A DNA stretch of 64,000 nt from Escherichia phage KIT06, in the sequence record OQ349392.1. One strand, 5' to 3'. Made by a program: the position numbers and the translations under genes. Positions 10,286-23,851 of the stretch are shown here, in pieces (the first letter of the stretch is position 1; the number at the start of each line of letters is the position of its first letter). Under the pieces are notes generated by a model. That model did no database searches. It saw only the letters and a program-made list of their open reading frames with translations, and was not told the origin of the DNA.

Positions 10286-10825
10286 ATGAGAACATTTTTA
10301 ACTGGTCCTTATCTATCCCTGATGAATGCTTTTACACACCATTCTGATGCTAGAGTAGAAGAAATTTGTAAAAACGATTATATCCCACCATTTGAAGACT
10401 TACTCAAACAGTATTGTACACTTCGTTTAGATGGTGGCAGACAATCTGGTAAATCAACTGCAGTAACTAATTTTGCCGCTAATTGGTTATATGATGGTGG
10501 AACAGTTATTGTTCTTTCTAATACTTCAGCTTATGCTAAAATTTCTGCGGGCCACATTAAAAAAGAATTTTCTCGTTATTCTAGCGATGATATTCGATTC
10601 CGCTTATTTACCGATTCTGTCCGTAGTTTTATCGGTAATAAAGGAAGCAAGTTCAGAGGTTTATTGCTTTCGCGAATTTTGTATATAATTGATGATCCTG
10701 TTAAAGCTCCTGATATGGATAAAATTTACGATATTCATATTGAAACTGTGCACCACTGTTGCAATAGTAAATGCTGCATTGGTGGTATTACTCGTCCACA
10801 GTTTTTCATAATCGGAATGCAATGA
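10286..10825 (+). CDS. P-loop NTPase-like protein with C-terminal Cys cluster
   Basis: Walker A GGRQSGKST, Walker-B-like LYIIDD, HHCCNSKCC; ATG 10286 after GAGAGAATAAAATG. Confidence 0.45.
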   Translation: MRTFLTGPYLSLMNAFTHHSDARVEEICKNDYIPPFEDLLKQYCTLRLDGGRQSGKSTAVTNFAANWLYDGGTVIVLSNTSAYAKISAGHIKKEFSRYSSDDIRFRLFTDSVRSFIGNKGSKFRGLLLSRILYIIDDPVKAPDMDKIYDIHIETVHHCCNSKCCIGGITRPQFFIIGMQ

Positions 10826-11151
10826 TGACAGACACGCAACTTTTCGAATATCTTTATTTTTCGCCAAAAACTGTTAAAAATAAATTGGTGAATCATTTTG
10901 AAATTTTGGCAAATAACAACGTCTTGAGCGAATTTTATCCTAAGCAATACAAACTACAAAAAGGTGTATTCAAAGGATGCAGAGTTTTGTGCACTGCTCC
11001 TAATGTAAGATTAATGAATAAAATTCCATATTTTACCATGGAATTTATTGATGGGCCTTTTAAAGGACTAATCACGCAGAGTTTAATGGCATATGATTCT
11101 GAGCCATTTTTAATTAAAGAGCAATCTTGGATAAATTTATTTTCTAATTGA
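10822..11151 (+). CDS. hypothetical protein
   Basis: ATG overlapping upstream TGA (ATGATG). Confidence 0.45.
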
Positions 11152-11159
11152 GAGGTTAT

Positions 11160-11522
11160 ATGAAAGCATATCAAATTCTTGAAGGCACGCATAAAGGTAC
11201 TATTTATTTTGAAGACGGTATTCAAGCACGAATTATTGTCTCTAAAACTTTTAAAGAGGACTCTTTTGTAGACCCAGAAATTTTCTATGGTTTGCATGCC
11301 CGTGAAATTGAAATTGAAACACAACCTACAGTTAAAATTGAAGGTGGTCAACACCTGAACGTTAACGTTCTGCGTCGTGAAACTCTGGAAGATGCAGTTA
11401 AGCATCCGGAAAAATATCCGCAGCTGACCATCCGTGTATCCGGTTATGCAGTTCGCTTTAACTCTCTGACTCCGGAACAGCAGCGCGACGTTATCGCTCG
11501 TACCTTTACTGAGAGTCTGTAA
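11160..11522 (+). CDS. autonomous glycyl-radical cofactor (GrcA/YfiD-like; T4 Y06I-type)
   Basis: C-terminus ...[59 protein letters not shown] with glycyl-radical motif RVSGY; 3' ~190 bp uses host-like GC-rich codons. Confidence 0.8.
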
Positions 11523-16092: not shown

Positions 16093-16103
16093 CATTTTAC
16101 CGG

Positions 16104-16912: not shown

Positions 16913-16915
16913 TGG

Positions 16916-16944
16916 TTTACAAGTTGGCAAGGTTATGGTATAGT
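16916..16944 (+). promoter_or_regulatory. T4-type early promoter
   Basis: TTTACA-N17-TATAGT. Confidence 0.65.
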
Positions 16945-17137
16945 AATCTTGTCAACTGCCAAGGAGAAGAGAATGAAAATTTTGTTTGTTGTGTATGTGA
17001 TGATTCAATATAATTACCCAATGTTTACTTATAATCTAGTGAACAACATTATTGATATTATTCAAAGGAGTATGTAATGACAAATGAACAAGCTTTTAAG
17101 TTAAGAGAATTAATTGAAACTTTAATTGGTGAATAAT

Positions 17138-17404
17138 GTGAGCTTTCCGAAATTAGAAGTAGGTGATTTAGTCTTAACAAAATTGTGGAATGATGCTCAA
17201 TCAGTAGAAATCTGCCAATATCGTGGAGCAACAGGTAATTTGATGTACACGATTTATAATCCAGAAATTTTATTAGAGTGTCATTTGGAACGCTTTATAA
17301 AAGACACTGATAGTATGCCTTATAGTGTATCGATTGTGCGTAAATCTGATACAAAGGAATACTCTAAAATTTTAGAAAAAATTCATGCCAATAAAAAGGA
17401 TTAA
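17138..17404 (+). CDS. hypothetical protein (non-ATG start)
   Basis: ORF 17126-17404 has no in-frame ATG near its 5' end; GTG 17138 after GGTGA is most plausible. Confidence 0.3.
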   Translation: MSFPKLEVGDLVLTKLWNDAQSVEICQYRGATGNLMYTIYNPEILLECHLERFIKDTDSMPYSVSIVRKSDTKEYSKILEKIHANKKD

Positions 17405-17405
17405 T

Positions 17406-17936
17406 ATGAAACGATTAGTACTAGAAGTTAGTTCACTTTTTGGTGAATTGGCTATAGAAAAAGTAAATAATATGTATCGTTTGACGCAAGAAGACGATAT
17501 GCTGTATTTTACACCTAGTGAAATTATTCATTTAACCCAAATTGAAAAACCTTATACTGATAAAATTGTAAGCATTAATGATGAGCATAAAATTCATTTC
17601 TATTCTTTATGCCCAGGATTTAACATTGAAAGCGAGTCAATATGCTTATCAATTAATAATTGGGATAATTTTATAACTAAAATTAAATATTTTTATTATT
17701 CTAACGAAAGAAAACATGGTTTAAAATGGTTTAAAAATTGCAATGCTATTATTACTAACGCTTGTAATCAAAATTATGAAACTGTTTTAAATGTATCAAA
17801 GTGTTACGAAGAAGGAGATGTCTTAACTATTCGTCAATCGGTAAATGATGTTAATGTTGTTGTATTAAACAAAGAAGAAGCTGTTTTATTAAAGACTTAT
17901 CTTGATTCTGTCATTCCAACTATGATTTCAAAGTGA
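17406..17936 (+). CDS. hypothetical protein (paralogue A of a tandem pair)
   Basis: ATG 17406 after AAAAAGGA; C-terminal motif KTYLDSVIPTM shared with next gene. Confidence 0.5.
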   Translation: MKRLVLEVSSLFGELAIEKVNNMYRLTQEDDMLYFTPSEIIHLTQIEKPYTDKIVSINDEHKIHFYSLCPGFNIESESICLSINNWDNFITKIKYFYYSNERKHGLKWFKNCNAIITNACNQNYETVLNVSKCYEEGDVLTIRQSVNDVNVVVLNKEEAVLLKTYLDSVIPTMISK

Positions 17937-17942
17937 GGAAAT

Positions 17943-18464
17943 ATGTTTATTTCAAGTGAAAGCGGTTTAATTCGTGTTGAATTTAAAAATGACATCTTCC
18001 TTATTCAAGGAGATGATATTATTAAAATGAGTTATGATGAAATTAAGAAAATTTGTAATGCTCTTGAAAATCATGGAAAGGTGAATGCTGTCATTGATAT
18101 TGGCGATTTATGGGTGACACTTTATGAAGTATCCGAAGGATTTAACATTGAAGATGAAAACAACATCTTAGCTATTGATAAAAGAAGTGATTTGTTTGAT
18201 GTGTTAAAAGTTTATGAACAGTCAAACGGTGGAAGAAAAGCTGCATTGATTTATCAAAAACCACATTCATGCGGAACTGCTTCAATCATTTCAGATATTG
18301 AAGATGAAACTGATACTTATATGTGTATTTTAAAAGCTGGTGGTGACCGTCATCCGGATTTTATTTCTATTCGTCAAAACAATGGAGAAATTTCATTATC
18401 AAAATCAGAAGCTGAAGCTATGATTAAGTATTTAACAACTGTTACACCTTCAATGAAAGGATAA
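17943..18464 (+). CDS. hypothetical protein (paralogue B of a tandem pair)
   Basis: 173 aa; C-terminal IKYLTTVTPSM and EGFNIE segment echo the upstream gene. Confidence 0.5.
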   Translation: MFISSESGLIRVEFKNDIFLIQGDDIIKMSYDEIKKICNALENHGKVNAVIDIGDLWVTLYEVSEGFNIEDENNILAIDKRSDLFDVLKVYEQSNGGRKAALIYQKPHSCGTASIISDIEDETDTYMCILKAGGDRHPDFISIRQNNGEISLSKSEAEAMIKYLTTVTPSMKG

Positions 18465-18466
18465 TT

Positions 18467-18928
18467 ATGATTATTAATGAAAGCTCTTGGCACTATAAAT
18501 TATTCAAAATGTTTAACGACGAATGGAAACGACCTAAGACACTGTGTGCATATTTTTGGTCTATTGTTATCCCTACATTTTTCGTTTCTTTTTTCGGATG
18601 TACTATACTCGCAGGTCTAACTATCATCTGCGCAGAAATCATGCAGAAATGGCTTATTTTTGGTAGTTTATGGACTCTTATTCCATCAGCATTTATACTT
18701 GCTATTTTGCTTGTTTTACTTATTATTGGTTCATTTGTTATTCCTGCACAATTGCATGAAAAATATAAAGATTATAAATGGAAAAAGGATTATGCTTTAC
18801 ATGTAGAAAATATTGATAGAGCGTATAAAGGTTTACCTCCTATTCAACCAAAGAAATCTATTATCGTCGAATTTTTAAAAGCGCGTAAAGCTAAAGTATG
18901 TCCTGTTATTGAATATAAGGCTGAATGA
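18467..18928 (+). CDS. integral membrane protein
   Basis: 153 aa with several hydrophobic helices. Confidence 0.5.
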   Translation: MIINESSWHYKLFKMFNDEWKRPKTLCAYFWSIVIPTFFVSFFGCTILAGLTIICAEIMQKWLIFGSLWTLIPSAFILAILLVLLIIGSFVIPAQLHEKYKDYKWKKDYALHVENIDRAYKGLPPIQPKKSIIVEFLKARKAKVCPVIEYKAE

Positions 18929-19938
18929 TGAAAACAGTAATGAAAAGCTATTTTGGTAGTCATCTTTATGGAACTTCTACTCCAGAATCTGATGTAGATT
19001 TTAAAGAAATCTTTGTTCCTCCTGCTCGTGATATTCTTATCGGAAATGTTAAAGAGCATATGAGTAAAAACACTAACAACACATCATCTAAAAACACTAA
19101 AGATGATATTGACCATGAACTATACAGTCTTAAGTATTTCTTTAAATTAGCAGCAGATGGTGAAACTGTAGCATTGGATATGCTCCACACTCCACCTGAA
19201 CTGGTAGTTAAATCTGATTTGCCTGATGTATGGAAGTTTATTCAAGACAATCGTTCTCGTTTTTATACAACTAACATGAAATCTTATTTAGGATATGTCC
19301 GCAAGCAAGCTTCTAAATATGGTGTCAAGGGTTCTCGTTTGGCCGCATTGCGTGATGTATTGAAAGTAGTTAATCAAATCCCTGAGCAATGGGTTGATTA
19401 CCAAGAAGACGGTTCCATTAAGCAGCGTCGAACTAAAGTTGAAGATATTAAGCATCGTCTTCCAGAGAACGAATTCTGTGAATGGGTATTCCATAATCAT
19501 GAGAAAACAGGCCCACAAACGTTCTACACTGTGTTGGGCCGTAAATATCAGACAACGCTTTCTCTTATCGAGCTTAAGCAGTCACTGAACAAATTAGATG
19601 CTGAATATGGCGAGCGCGCTCGTAAGGCTGAAGCTAATGAAGGTATTGACTGGAAAGCTCTGAGTCATGCTTGTCGTGGTGGACTCCAACTATTGGAAAT
19701 TTACAAAACTGGTGACTTAGTCTATCCACTTCAAGACGCTCCTTTTATTCTCGACGTGAAGTTGGGTAAACATCCATTTAAAACTGTTCAAGAGTTTTTG
19801 GAAGATGTGGTCGATCAAGTAGAAGCAGCATCCATTGAAGCTTCTAAGAACGGTATGCAGCAAAAAGTAGATATGAGTTTCTGGGATGACTTCCTTGAGA
19901 GGGTTTATCTTGAAAACCACCGAAGTTATTATAAATGA
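18925..19938 (+). CDS. hypothetical protein with nucleotidyltransferase-like motif
   Basis: 337 aa; N-terminal GSHLYGTSTPESDVDF fits the G-S...D-x-D pattern of pol-beta-type nucleotidyltransferases (tentative). Confidence 0.45.
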   Translation: MMKTVMKSYFGSHLYGTSTPESDVDFKEIFVPPARDILIGNVKEHMSKNTNNTSSKNTKDDIDHELYSLKYFFKLAADGETVALDMLHTPPELVVKSDLPDVWKFIQDNRSRFYTTNMKSYLGYVRKQASKYGVKGSRLAALRDVLKVVNQIPEQWVDYQEDGSIKQRRTKVEDIKHRLPENEFCEWVFHNHEKTGPQTFYTVLGRKYQTTLSLIELKQSLNKLDAEYGERARKAEANEGIDWKALSHACRGGLQLLEIYKTGDLVYPLQDAPFILDVKLGKHPFKTVQEFLEDVVDQVEAASIEASKNGMQQKVDMSFWDDFLERVYLENHRSYYK

Positions 19939-19940
19939 TA

Positions 19941-19964
19941 GGGAGCCTTCGGGCTCCCTTTTTT
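19941..19964 (+). terminator. rho-independent terminator (UUCG tetraloop)
   Basis: GGGAGCC-TTCG-GGCTCCC followed by TTTTTT. Confidence 0.8.
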
Positions 19965-19987
19965 GTTTAAATGACGTCACAAAGTTG

Positions 19988-20016
19988 TTTACAAGCATAA
20001 AGCTTTGTGGTACTAT
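19988..20016 (+). promoter_or_regulatory. T4-type early promoter
   Basis: TTTACA-N17-TACTAT. Confidence 0.7.
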
Positions 20017-20050
20017 ACAACTATCAACTGATGTGGATTTGGGGAATAAA

Positions 20051-20200
20051 ATGAAAACTACGTTAATTGAAGTAAAAAAGTTGATTGACACAGAAGAGAT
20101 TTCAGCTTATTTTGAAAATTTCTTAGAAGATGCAACTGAAGATAACGCGGTTTATCTCGCTCAGAAAATTATAGAAACATATTTGGAGCAGAATCAATGA
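20051..20200 (+). CDS. hypothetical small acidic protein (49 aa)
   Basis: ATG after GGGGAATAAA; upstream part of ORF 19886 overlaps the promoter. Confidence 0.45.
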   Translation: MKTTLIEVKKLIDTEEISAYFENFLEDATEDNAVYLAQKIIETYLEQNQ

Positions 20201-20460
20201 CAGTTTACGTAGATGTTTTAATGAATCATGGATGGAAACTTCGCGGTCATCCAACTAAAAATTGTCATATGTTCACTGATGGAGATATTGAAGAGCTTCA
20301 TGAAATGGCAGAAGCAATAGGAATGAAACGTTCTTGGTTTCAAGATAAACGCATTAAACATTATGACTTACACGCGCGGCGACGCCAAAAAGCCGTAGAA
20401 CTTGGAGCTGTAGAAGTATCTCGTCGCGAAGCAGTAAAAATTTGGCGAACATTAAAATAA
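20197..20460 (+). CDS. hypothetical basic protein
   Basis: 87 aa, ATGA overlap. Confidence 0.5.
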   Translation: MTVYVDVLMNHGWKLRGHPTKNCHMFTDGDIEELHEMAEAIGMKRSWFQDKRIKHYDLHARRRQKAVELGAVEVSRREAVKIWRTLK

Positions 20461-20464
20461 ATTG

Positions 20465-20493
20465 TTTACAGTAGGGTAGTAGTGTGATACTAT
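20465..20493 (+). promoter_or_regulatory. T4-type early promoter
   Basis: TTTACA-N17-TACTAT. Confidence 0.7.
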
Positions 20494-20529
20494 TACCCTA
20501 TCAAAACAAATGTGAAATTGGAGAATAAA

Positions 20530-21498
20530 ATGAAAACTGTAACTATCAATAAGGGTATCTACTTCGGTAAAGAAATCTCTGGAACTTTTGAGCTTTTAGG
20601 CGAATGGTTCCCAGATAATGCTCCGGTAGATGCACAAGGAGATGGTAAAGTTTTTGTTGAAATTGACGGTAAACGTCGCGGTGTTTGGGTTTACAAATCA
20701 GATATTTCATATGATGGTGTAAAAGTTGAAGAAGTTAAAGAATCATATGAAGATATGAAAACCCGCATTAATAAAAGATTTAATGTTATGGGAATGATGA
20801 CGAATGGTATTATTAACGGAAATATTCGTTCATTGATTATCTCTGGCGCAGCAGGTATTGGTAAAACGTATTCTTTAGATAAAGCTTTAAATAAAGCAAA
20901 TGATATTGGATACATTGAATATAAAAGCATTAATGGTAAAATCTCTGGTATTGGTCTTTATGAACAGCTTTGGAATAATCGTGAAGAGAATTCTGTCCTT
21001 TTGATTGATGATGTGGATGTTTTCTCTGATATGGACATTCTTAATCTTCTAAAAGCTGCTCTGGACACTGGAGAGACCCGTAAAGTCTGCTGGAGCACTG
21101 CATCTTCTTACTTAGAAGAAAAAGGCATTGACCGTGAGTTTGAATTTAAAGGAACGATTGTTTTTATCACAAACGTTGACATTGACCGCGAATTAGACCG
21201 TGGTACTAAACTTGCCCCACACTTACAAGCATTAGTGTCCCGCTCAGTTTATTTGGATTTGGGTGTTCACACTAATGAAGAAATTATGGTCAGGGTTGAA
21301 GATGTTATTCTTTCAACTGACATGATGCAAAAGCGCGGTCTTTCTGATGAAGAAACTTATAAAGCATTATCATGGATGAAAGTTAATGTTAATCGTTTAC
21401 GCAATGTTTCACTGCGTACTGCTCTTTATCTTGCTGACTTTATTATGACCGACAAAAACGGTTGGGAAGAAATTGCTGAGGTTACTCTTCTGAAATAA
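20530..21498 (+). CDS. AAA+ ATPase-like protein
   Basis: Walker A GAAGIGKT, Walker B LLIDDVD; ATG 20530 after GGAGAATAAA. Confidence 0.55.
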   Translation: MKTVTINKGIYFGKEISGTFELLGEWFPDNAPVDAQGDGKVFVEIDGKRRGVWVYKSDISYDGVKVEEVKESYEDMKTRINKRFNVMGMMTNGIINGNIRSLIISGAAGIGKTYSLDKALNKANDIGYIEYKSINGKISGIGLYEQLWNNREENSVLLIDDVDVFSDMDILNLLKAALDTGETRKVCWSTASSYLEEKGIDREFEFKGTIVFITNVDIDRELDRGTKLAPHLQALVSRSVYLDLGVHTNEEIMVRVEDVILSTDMMQKRGLSDEETYKALSWMKVNVNRLRNVSLRTALYLADFIMTDKNGWEEIAEVTLLK

Positions 21499-22545: not shown

Positions 22546-22953
22546 ATGAAACAGTTGATAATTAAAAGATTGAATTTATTGATATGTTGTTTATGTGTAG
22601 TAGTTGCATACGGTTATTATGCTATTAATGATTATATGCATTATAAAGATTATGATGTTACTGTAGTTAATACCATTACAGGAACACAAGGAAAAGGGTC
22701 TAGTTTATCGTTTATTGCCGTATATGAACTTAAAGACGGTTATAGATTTAGTGAATATATTTCCCCAGAGATGTATTCTTCAATAGAAAAAGGTGATAAT
22801 ATTACTGTAAGTTTACGTCCTTTCGACGTAAAACAGACACTGTTTGATAATATTGTTTGGTTCTTTGGGATGGTATTAGTTCAATCTGTGTGCGGTGCTT
22901 ATGTAGTCTGTTCCATCTTATTCTGTATATTTAGTAAAATTGAAATTGAGTGA
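22546..22953 (+). CDS. membrane protein
   Basis: 135 aa with N- and C-terminal hydrophobic helices. Confidence 0.5.
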   Translation: MKQLIIKRLNLLICCLCVVVAYGYYAINDYMHYKDYDVTVVNTITGTQGKGSSLSFIAVYELKDGYRFSEYISPEMYSSIEKGDNITVSLRPFDVKQTLFDNIVWFFGMVLVQSVCGAYVVCSILFCIFSKIEIE

Positions 22954-22960
22954 GGAAAAT

Positions 22961-23851
22961 ATGTCAGTAGTAATTAATAATGTCAATGCAGTAATTAAAT
23001 CTTTAGTTAATAAAAAAATGATGAATGAATGGACTGTATTTCGTCGTGGAGAGCCAGATAAATTTTTTCATAGATTTAACCCAACTTTGGATTTGAATGT
23101 TATCGACAAAGATGTTCATGCAGAAATTTTAGATAAGTTTAAAGTTGATATTGGATTTGGATTAGAAAAACATTTACAGCGAACAACCGGGTCTGGAATG
23201 AGTTTATCTAATCGCATTATGAAAGCCCTTAATAAAATTGGAGCGTTGTCTCGTATTAATGCGAGTGAAATTCTTCGTAATTATAATAAAGGATATGACC
23301 TTTATGGTCGACTAATGCCGAAATTATCATTCGATCAAATGATTGCGGATTTGTGGGAAAATCAACGACGATTATTAGCATTAGGCGCTCGATTAGCTAA
23401 AGGTCTAGATAAACAAATGATTTTTAAGACCAATAATACAGAAGACCTTAAATGCTTTAAATTTAGTATTCGTGGAGATGATTATTACATCAGAGCTCGC
23501 TCTACCGATTATATTAATATGGGACATCATCTCTGTTTAGCTTTTGAAGTTTTAAAAGAAGCTGGAACACTAGAATATTCATCTGGTGCAAAATGCCCTA
23601 TTGGTTCAAGTTGTATTTTAATTTATCGCCCGGATGAATCTAGTTCAACTAAATTGCCTACAAAACCTGTACCGGTTCGTAGTAACGAAAAACATTCTGA
23701 ACAAATTGATTATTTTAATAAGCAGATTGAAGAGCTGAATATTTCTATTCAACAATATGATGATGAAATTTTCAGACTATCTGGATTGAGTAGTAAAGCT
23801 AAATCTGAGCGTGAAAAGTTAATTAAAATTGTTGATTTACTTAAATCTTAA
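22961..23851 (+). CDS. hypothetical protein, C-terminal coiled coil (array member 1)
   Basis: ATG 22961 after GAGGAAAAT; C-terminal ~40 aa heptad-like. Confidence 0.5.
   Translation: MSVVINNVNAVIKSLVNKKMMNEWTVFRRGEPDKFFHRFNPTLDLNVIDKDVHAEILDKFKVDIGFGLEKHLQRTTGSGMSLSNRIMKALNKIGALSRINASEILRNYNKGYDLYGRLMPKLSFDQMIADLWENQRRLLALGARLAKGLDKQMIFKTNNTEDLKCFKFSIRGDDYYIRARSTDYINMGHHLCLAFEVLKEAGTLEYSSGAKCPIGSSCILIYRPDESSSTKLPTKPVPVRSNEKHSEQIDYFNKQIEELNISIQQYDDEIFRLSGLSSKAKSEREKLIKIVDLLKS

Follow-up and report, generated by a model that had tools for sequence, protein, structure and literature searches.

In bacteriophage T4 the genes mobD.1, nrdC.11 and nrdC.10 have been part of the genome record for decades; the RNA ligases and Pnk of this phage are encoded elsewhere in its genome. 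T4 carrying a deletion across nrdC.11-mobD.3 is viable (PMC9825161). For T4-type phages, the shuffling of hyperplastic regions via PeSL (promoter-early stem-loop) cassettes has been described, in which a terminator hairpin followed by an early promoter is found at the borders of variable genes (PMC2839356, PMC4122927). T4 NrdC.11 has been assigned to the RlaP family (PF10127), SSN cluster 5, in the same preprint which reports that two RlaPs from Pseudomonas, those of P. fluorescens and P. aeruginosa, add one to two NMPs to RNA 3'-OH ends (10.64898/2025.12.29.696909). The crystal structure of PfRlaP exhibits a cleft between the C-terminal helical domain and the nucleotidyltransferase (NTase) domain. 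In CBASS-like systems, an NTase is paired with an effector.

The block at positions 17406-21498 of the window, by which we denote the whole analysed stretch of 64,000 nucleotides from Escherichia phage KIT06 (OQ349392.1), most probably represents the mobD.1-nrdC.11-nrdC.10 segment of a T4-type (Tequatrovirus) genome, within its tk-nrdC hyperplastic region, that is, an assembly of individually swapped, non-essential immediate-early genes and no single machine. Across the whole 4.3 kb it shares about 95% nucleotide identity with hundreds of Tequatrovirus records. Gene order and strand are those of mobD.1, nrdC.11 and nrdC.10 in T4, and the terminator and early promoter between the latter two are likewise common to both phages. 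A sequence-only reading of this DNA had stated that none of the five proteins it described matches a nameable T4 protein. This is wrong for three of them, which correspond to mobD.1 (82% amino acid identity), NrdC.11 (98.8%) and NrdC.10 (99%). The five genes themselves are real, but two open reading frames (20051-20200 and 20197-20460), a terminator and two early promoters, all located between the NTase and the ATPase gene, had been missed. T4 differs in the following respects: KIT06 lacks the mobD homing endonuclease gene and instead harbours a second y05I paralogue and a membrane protein gene; it contains an additional tudor-domain ORF upstream; and nrdC.10 is preceded by a cassette with its own promoter, in which a 49-aa ORF is combined with a DUF4031 gene. 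The block is well known and constitutes no new nucleotidyltransferase-ATPase signalling module. Its present importance is small, as sequenced phages with copies of 90-100% identity number in the hundreds and T4 survives the deletion mentioned above; natural fusion/deletion proteins (P0141 and P0153), which we counted toward dispensability, were found as well.

The one gene of the block which offers a testable lead is nrdC.11 (18925..19938, + strand; phrog_388). Its 337-aa product matches PF10127 with an E value of 2.7e-11 and 44.1 bits at a cut-off of 23, whereby residues 7-135 align to positions 23-142 of the 249-position model and therefore to its N-terminal half only. The GS...DVDF motif pointed out previously is indeed present (GS at 11-12, D23-V-D25-F) and is joined by D85. 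These residues make up the Pol-beta signature (hG[GS], DxD, third carboxylate), and all five (G11, S12, D23, D25, D85) are unchanged across 13 homologues with identities as low as 33%. The NTase core of the P. fluorescens and P. aeruginosa RlaPs carries the same elements, including the third Asp. With this GS/DxD/D active site NrdC.11 would, like its RlaP relatives, extend RNA 3'-OH ends by one or two NMPs, an activity which we regard as a serious possibility. Since the match is confined to the N-terminal half of the Pfam model and NrdC.11 belongs to cluster 5 whereas the assayed enzymes belong to cluster 1a, this assignment is an extrapolation. As to the biological role, NrdC.11 would put back nucleotides that host anticodon nucleases have trimmed from tRNAs, ahead of sealing by the phage Pnk and RNA ligase, which we propose tentatively. 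It appears rather doubtful that the enzyme is, more specifically, a third and so far unrecognised member of T4's classic pathway of RNA repair, rebuilding tRNA nucleotides removed by RloC-type ("excising") anticodon nucleases so that Pnk and Rnl1 can then reseal the molecule. If this were true, NrdC.11 would represent a counter-defence of the phage, directed at nucleases whose evolution has made simple religation ineffective, and any repair of RNA 3' ends by this protein would extend the T4 tRNA-repair paradigm. RNA 3'-end repair by NrdC.11 would be the most plausible single function of the block.

Not all features of the protein point to RNA repair. The PF10127 match is limited to the N-terminal NTase core, while the C-terminal 200 residues show a separate motif of very strong conservation, YGERARKAEANEGIDWKALSHA, and neither sequence nor profile searches of the PDB returned a matching structure for NrdC.11. 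In addition, the RlaP family owes its name to an association with RNA ligases, whereas nrdC.11 is located beside neither RtcB nor any other RNA ligase: no RNA ligase or RNA-repair operon adjoins it in the nrdD-vs.1 stretch of T4 or in the neighbourhoods mapped for 31 loci. These observations would fit an NTase of another kind, either of the toxin/antitoxin type (MNT, AbiEii, MenT-like) or a protein or small-molecule nucleotidylyltransferase modifying a host factor during takeover. We nevertheless consider such an enzyme somewhat unlikely, as the PF10127 match exceeds the curated cut-off by 21 bits with no other NTase family scoring better, phrog_388 places NrdC.11 with nucleotidyltransferases, and the authors of the RlaP study put T4 NrdC.11 inside the family.

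Upstream of nrdC.11, a T4-type early promoter (GTTTAC...TGGTATAGT; 16915..16944, + strand) was recognised by its motif. A single unit made up of mobD.2, the tudor-domain ORF, both y05I paralogues, the membrane protein gene and nrdC.11 is predicted to be transcribed from it and would end at a strong intrinsic terminator (19940..19959, + strand). The latter combines a GC-rich stem of 8 bp with a UUCG loop and a T-run, has a folding energy of -21.6 kcal/mol (z -5.8) and is identical in T4. Read-through of terminators is frequent in T4 early transcripts. The first of the y05I paralogues, gene A (17406..17936, + strand; 176 aa, phrog_1502), is the orthologue of T4 mobD.1 (Y05I). Its ATG at 17406 is preceded by a ribosome-binding site, whereas the mechanically called ORF begins at 17385. 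Gene B (17943..18464, + strand) has no match in T4 beyond a weak one to mobD.1. The suspected tandem duplication proved real: A and B share 27% identity (BLASTP E 6e-10), the C-terminal motif (YLDSVIPTM in A, YLTTVTPSM in B) and two Pfam domains, PF24449 (A: 1.6e-40, 138.1 bits; B: 9e-34, 116.5 bits) and PF24448 (A: 2e-17, 63.7 bits; B: 3.6e-23, 82.1 bits), each above its gathering score. The Pfam label of the family is that of a (DNA-binding) transcription factor. An AlphaFold model of y05I calculated from a 12-sequence alignment was unusable (pLDDT 51), and a PDB profile search with the family gave no match. Together with the genes of the membrane protein and the DUF4031 protein, both y05I paralogues would be accessory host-takeover genes.

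The small membrane protein (18467..18928, + strand; 153 aa, phrog_944 at 1.2e-49) had been proposed to be a multi-pass protein, and hydropathy agrees with this in that a hydrophobic core of approximately residues 25-98 provides room for at least two membrane spans. Its stop codon overlaps the start codon of nrdC.11 by 4 nt (ATGA). In the sampled Tequatrovirus, JS98-like and RB69-like relatives 0-9 nt separate the gene from the NTase gene downstream of it, a spacing kept even where the membrane protein is only 30-48% identical; in more distant relatives the distance grows to about 0.4-1.2 kb. This arrangement would be expected if the two genes formed a translationally coupled unit in which the membrane protein anchors or regulates the NTase at the inner membrane, for instance so that RNA or nucleotides are acted upon where DNA enters or superinfection takes place. 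We consider this improbable, however, because nrdC.11 occurs without the membrane protein gene, which is absent from T4 and from a further relative (L005), mobD sits between both genes in another (L009), and phage records with the membrane protein number 859, as opposed to 1517 for the NTase.

Beyond the terminator, an early promoter (19983..20029, + strand) was identified by its motif, which together with the terminator forms a PeSL-type unit. Its T4 counterpart drives nrdC.10 directly, whereas in KIT06 two small genes follow: a 49-aa ORF (20051..20200, + strand; phrog_6888 at 3.4e-27), whose ribosome-binding site and three opening codons are copies of those of nrdC.10, and the DUF4031 gene (20197..20460, + strand; 87 aa, PF13223 at 8.2e-22). 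A second early promoter (20460..20506, + strand), likewise recognised by its motif, came with this cassette and now drives nrdC.10. On the basis of these motifs the 49-aa ORF and the DUF4031 gene, on the one hand, and NrdC.10 and NrdC.9, on the other, are predicted to belong to separate early-promoter units. Members of this promoter family are located at 16103, 16915, 19987, 20464 and 21905, and across the window the motif occurs in 21 copies on the + strand and in none on the - strand.

NrdC.10 (20530..21498, + strand; 322 aa) is a stand-alone AAA+ ATPase composed of an N-terminal beta domain (about residues 1-61), an AAA+ core and a helical lid. As had been recognised before, it is a P-loop protein of the AAA+ type, with GAAGIGKT as Walker A and LLIDDVD as Walker B motif; both motifs, sensor 1 and arginine residues are conserved on core and lid. 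No Pfam AAA model reaches its cut-off with this protein, the N-terminal beta domain yielded no match, and the family (phrog_1250) is phage-restricted. Owing to a flat Z profile, no AAA+ clade (MCM, MoxR-type NorQ/CbbQ, NtrC-type activators, HslU, DnaA/Orc or RFC) stands out. We infer that NrdC.10 is an active, probably oligomeric remodelling ATPase which would act independently of NrdC.11 on an early target.

The speculation that NTase and ATPase constitute a paired signalling or counter-defence module, in which NrdC.11 produces a nucleotide signal or modifies a target and NrdC.10 acts with it, has their proximity in its favour: the two are early genes of the same strand, are neighbours in T4 with a gap of 114 bp, and 21 of 31 NTase loci have the ATPase gene within 10 kb. 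They are adjacent or nearly so in most T4-like phages of enterobacteria and Acinetobacter (these 21 loci), for which function, besides shared ancestry, could be a reason. Yet such a module is very improbable, given that the strong terminator and two early promoters predicted from the sequence separate the genes, that the gap among relatives varies from 112 to 2290 bp with unrelated cassettes inside, marking an insertion hot spot, that in the JS98-like L009, L011 and L024, which retain the NTase, the ATPase is not found within 10 kb, that Aeromonas T4-like phages carry both genes about 60-100 kb apart (about 100 kb in one genome; at 50 kb and 110 kb in phage B614), that an NTase is near in only 9 of 43 ATPase loci, and that 33 distant ATPase homologues have no NTase profile match within 5 kb. 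Consistent co-occurrence and co-transcription of the NTase with a partner were accordingly not found, and separate scattering in relatives, which the sequence-only reading had named as grounds for refutation, is seen for this pair. Furthermore, PADLOC gave no match for any of nine proteins, and Pfam matches of NTase type at E values up to 0.1 were restricted to RlaP and a sub-threshold NTP_transf_2. With CBASS CD-NTases and other nucleotide-signalling synthases NrdC.11 has only the generic fold motif of the Pol-beta NTase superfamily in common and, unlike these systems, no conserved partner gene. What persists of the counter-defence idea concerns the NTase by itself, for which such a role is plausible because it belongs to the RlaP family, whose bacterial members add nucleotides to damaged RNA 3' ends. 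The corrective value of these data lies in that the block is to be read as the T4 mobD.1-nrdC.10 segment and the NTase-ATPase pair as no conserved module.

Comparison of relatives shows the block to be a patchwork of early genes shuffled independently via terminator-promoter (PeSL-type) cassettes. In T4, mobD replaces gene B and the membrane protein gene (17962-18923); in L005, mobD.3 is joined directly to nrdC.11; and in L009 the order is membrane protein gene, mobD, nrdC.11. Prevalence differs from gene to gene, with 1517 (NTase), 1311, 859 (membrane protein), 448 (gene B) and 326 (DUF4031) phage records. The locus is a clean textbook case of a hyperplastic region with cassette shuffling and homing-endonuclease replacement. 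Alignment with T4 reveals that the 49-aa ORF and the DUF4031 gene form an insert of 477-479 bp between the T4 nrdC.10 promoter and nrdC.10. The terminator at 19940-19959 and the promoter at 19983-20029 fit the PeSL scheme, and the T4 indel is found exactly there. In contrast to PeSL cassettes, however, the recombination joint lies downstream of the promoter within a repeated segment comprising the ribosome-binding site and start codons, which bounds the cassette as a direct repeat (20026-20059 and 20505-20538, 85%), and the two promoter copies share only 62% identity. The DUF4031 gene, absent from T4, behaves as a mobile cassette gene; its homologues are all small stand-alone proteins, and in some Klebsiella and Salmonella phages it is located downstream of the ATPase gene.

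The 4.3-kb stretch which contains the block is matched by 747 phage records; 342 of these span 80% or more of it, for the most part with 90-99% nucleotide identity, and nearly all come from Escherichia or Shigella Tequatrovirus (T4-type) phages. Since the genes 5' of the block are those of thymidine kinase, rI.1, rI and rI.-1, the plus strand of the window corresponds to the T4 early-gene strand in the order tk, rI, mobD.x, nrdC.11 and nrdC.1. All five genes named in a sequence-only reading of this DNA are present, among them a nucleotidyltransferase (NTase) and an AAA+ ATPase. The accompanying statement that none matches a T4 protein must be corrected for three of them, which are T4 MobD.1 (82% identity), NrdC.11 (98.8%) and NrdC.10 (99%), and the gene list has to be extended as the interval between NTase and ATPase holds a terminator, two early promoters, a 49-aa ORF and a DUF4031 gene. 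The block has been recorded before, both as sequence and in the form of named T4 genes; its function is uncharacterised and its kind is not new. An earlier comparison noted the AAA match of nrdC.10, a gene found in only three of six phages, as well as the nucleotidyltransferase match of nrdC.11 (PMC1524935), and in T4 the nrdC.11-mobD.3 stretch can be deleted (PMC9825161). Searches of the literature by gene name returned only comparative-genomics mentions, a genome-reduction study and a preprint on RlaP nucleotidyltransferases. Scans of nine proteins against NCBIfam and PADLOC, the latter including all seven of the block, gave zero matches, and sequence and profile searches of the PDB with NrdC.11, NrdC.10, the y05I proteins and the DUF4031 protein yielded chance-level matches only. 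As a side observation, GenBank and RefSeq contain misannotations propagated from the gene names: nrdC.x genes, those of the NTase and the AAA+ ATPase among them, are called “thioredoxin”, and mobD.x genes [quoted passage not shown], a label borne in RefSeq by T4 mobD.4.

NTase and ATPase had been proposed to form a signalling or counter-defence module. The two genes are, however, scattered in relatives, which argues against such a pairing. Phage records number 1517 for the NTase, 1311 for the ATPase, 859 for the membrane protein, 448 for y05I paralogue B and 326 for DUF4031. Linkage was counted in sampled loci only (31 NTase-centred loci from IMG/VR and 43 ATPase-centred ones). In 21 of the former the ATPase is located no more than 10 kb downstream of the NTase, separated by 112-2290 bp; it was not found within 10 kb of the NTase in three JS98-like relatives, in Aeromonas phages and around the most distant homologues. 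Conversely, an NTase is near the ATPase in only 9 of the 43 ATPase-centred loci, namely those with an ATPase of 66% identity or more; in the other 33 analysed, tblastn detected no NTase, nor did an NTase profile search within 5 kb. In one Aeromonas phage genome (L029 and L043 ranges) the two genes are about 100 kb apart, and in Aeromonas phage B614 they are located at 50 kb and 110 kb. Members of the ATPase family also occur in jumbo phages and a Roseobacter siphovirus, and no conserved partner emerged when the genes around 33 distant homologues of NrdC.10 were clustered. The adjacency of NTase and ATPase in enterobacterial T4-like phages is best read as inherited synteny. NrdC.10 itself (20530-21498, 322 aa) possesses the full set of catalytic residues of an active AAA+ ATPase as well as, at its N terminus, a small beta domain, and cannot be assigned to a single AAA+ functional clade; Foldseek against viral structures retrieved uncharacterised phage AAA proteins only. 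Some of its orthologues carry the label “clamp loader”.

The T4 early-promoter motif (GTTTAC-N(12-16)-TGnTAnnnT) occurs 21 times on the plus strand of the window and not once on the minus strand, a bias consistent with early transcription of the entire 64 kb in one direction. Copies in the region lie at 16103, 16915, 19987, 20464 and 21905. Motif searches found neither a MotA-box middle promoter nor a late-promoter motif within the block. Behind the NTase gene lies a strong intrinsic terminator (19940-19959; -21.6 kcal/mol, z -5.8), followed, ahead of the ATPase gene, by a first (19983-20029) and a second early promoter (20460-20506). Three transcription units are predicted. The first would run from the promoter at 16915 through mobD.2, a tudor-domain ORF, the y05I paralogues A and B, the membrane protein and NrdC.11 to the terminator, and displays gene spacings of 6 nt and 2 nt and then a 4-nt ATGA overlap; the second would lead from 19987 into the 49-aa ORF and DUF4031, and the third from 20464 into NrdC.10 and NrdC.9. 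On this reading, NTase and ATPase would belong to separate units. An Rfam scan of the region detected no known RNA family; an L20 leader candidate at 19811-19974, which overlaps both the 3' end of nrdC.11 and the hairpin of the terminator, scored 28.5 bits against a gathering threshold of 58.7 (E 0.024) and was judged a chance hit.

Alignment with T4 reveals that the terminator, the first early promoter, the ribosome-binding site (RBS) and the codons ATGAAAACT are near-identical in both phages. In T4, nrdC.10 follows directly, whereas in KIT06 a cassette of 477-479 bp is inserted after the ATGAAAACT codons. It consists of the body of the 49-aa ORF (20051-20200, phrog_6888), the DUF4031 gene (20197-20460, PF13223 8e-22), the second early promoter, which differs from the first, and another copy of RBS plus ATGAAAACT. 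A repeat spanning RBS and ATGAAAACT (20026-20059 and 20505-20538, 85% identical) bounds the cassette (20060-20538). This arrangement indicates that the 49-aa ORF took over promoter, RBS and first three codons of T4 nrdC.10, and that nrdC.10 is now served by the second promoter. The pair of 49-aa ORF and DUF4031 gene also directly precedes nrdC.10 in a contig of an Enterobacter-type phage (L023/L039), and DUF4031 is found downstream of nrdC.10 in some phages of Klebsiella and Salmonella. All DUF4031 homologues are small, stand-alone proteins without a fused domain; one Mycobacterium copy resides in a prophage-like context.

The 337-aa protein with the GS...DVDF motif, NrdC.11 (18925-19938), bears a Pol-beta NTase signature, and its catalytic residues G11-S12, D23-x-D25 and D85 are invariant across 13 homologues with identities down to 33%. 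It matches the RlaP family (PF10127) with 44 bits at a cut-off of 23. In the classic tRNA-repair pathway of T4, Pnk and Rnl1 counter the PrrC anticodon nuclease. Two RlaPs from Pseudomonas are reported to extend the 3'-OH ends of RNA by one or two NMPs and to favour damaged RNAs (preprint of December 2025, 10.64898/2025.12.29.696909), this addition being required for the function of repaired, nucleotide-depleted tRNA; the same work assigns T4 NrdC.11 to a distinct cluster of the RlaP family. Taking family membership and Pnk/Rnl1 repair together, we infer that the most economical mechanism for NrdC.11 would be the restoration of 3'-end nucleotides on cleaved, trimmed RNAs. However, NrdC.11 matches the Pfam model over its N-terminal half only, its C-terminal half has a very conserved motif of its own, and no ligase gene adjoins nrdC.11, all of which counts against this mechanism. 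As a candidate phage RNA 3'-end repair enzyme, NrdC.11 is the sole lead from this block that merits experiment.

The suspected duplication at the start of the block is genuine and not a chance motif. Paralogue A (MobD.1, 17406-17936, plus strand), whose ATG at 17406 is preceded by an AGGA ribosome-binding site, and paralogue B (17943-18464, plus strand) share 27% identity across 174 residues (E 6e-10), and both score far above the Pfam cut-offs for T4_y05I_N and T4_y05I_C and match phrog_1502. Pfam names y05I proteins “putative transcription factor”; the AlphaFold model of A is poor (pLDDT 51), and the family comprises only 33 clusters in a database of 5.8 billion proteins. The adjoining 153-aa product (18467-18928, phrog_944 “membrane protein”) was rightly taken for a multi-pass membrane protein, as its continuous hydrophobic region (residues ~25-98) offers room for at least two spans. 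Upstream of mobD.1, the tudor-domain ORF (17126-17404; PF24144 7e-40, phrog_3215) lies in a region (17081-17407) missing from T4 in the alignment; it recurs in other Tequatroviruses and, with 41-73% identity, in T4-like phages of Klebsiella and of the Enterobacter type.

In place of B and the membrane protein (17962-18923), T4 harbours the homing-endonuclease gene mobD (10446-11259 of the T4 contig), and homology resumes one base ahead of the nrdC.11 start codon. A related contig (L009) shows the order membrane protein, mobD (79% identical) and nrdC.11. From both arrangements, the spot just 5' of the nrdC.11 start looks like a mobD insertion or homing site, with KIT06 carrying the mobD-less allele. 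MobD is listed among the free-standing HNH endonucleases, as an insertion between nrdC.11 and mobD.1 (PMC2988022). In another contig (L005) mobD.3 abuts nrdC.11 while A, B and the membrane protein are absent, and JS98-like phages have one y05I gene only. Two database proteins show that deletion between and within these genes is still ongoing: P0141 joins the N-terminal half of A to the C-terminal half of B, and in P0153 the initial ~50 residues of MobD.1 run directly into the C-terminal part of NrdC.11, the NTase catalytic domain being gone. These rearrangements match the behaviour described for T4-type hyperplastic regions, in which terminator/early-promoter units (PeSLs) are recombination points (PMC2839356, PMC4122927).

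Further downstream, the nrdC.6 orthologue (22940-23851) encodes 303 aa compared to 275 aa annotated in T4. Its final 37 residues lie in another reading frame in T4 (tblastn pieces 6915-6118 and 6118-6008 of the T4 contig), which points to a frameshift as the difference between the two phages.
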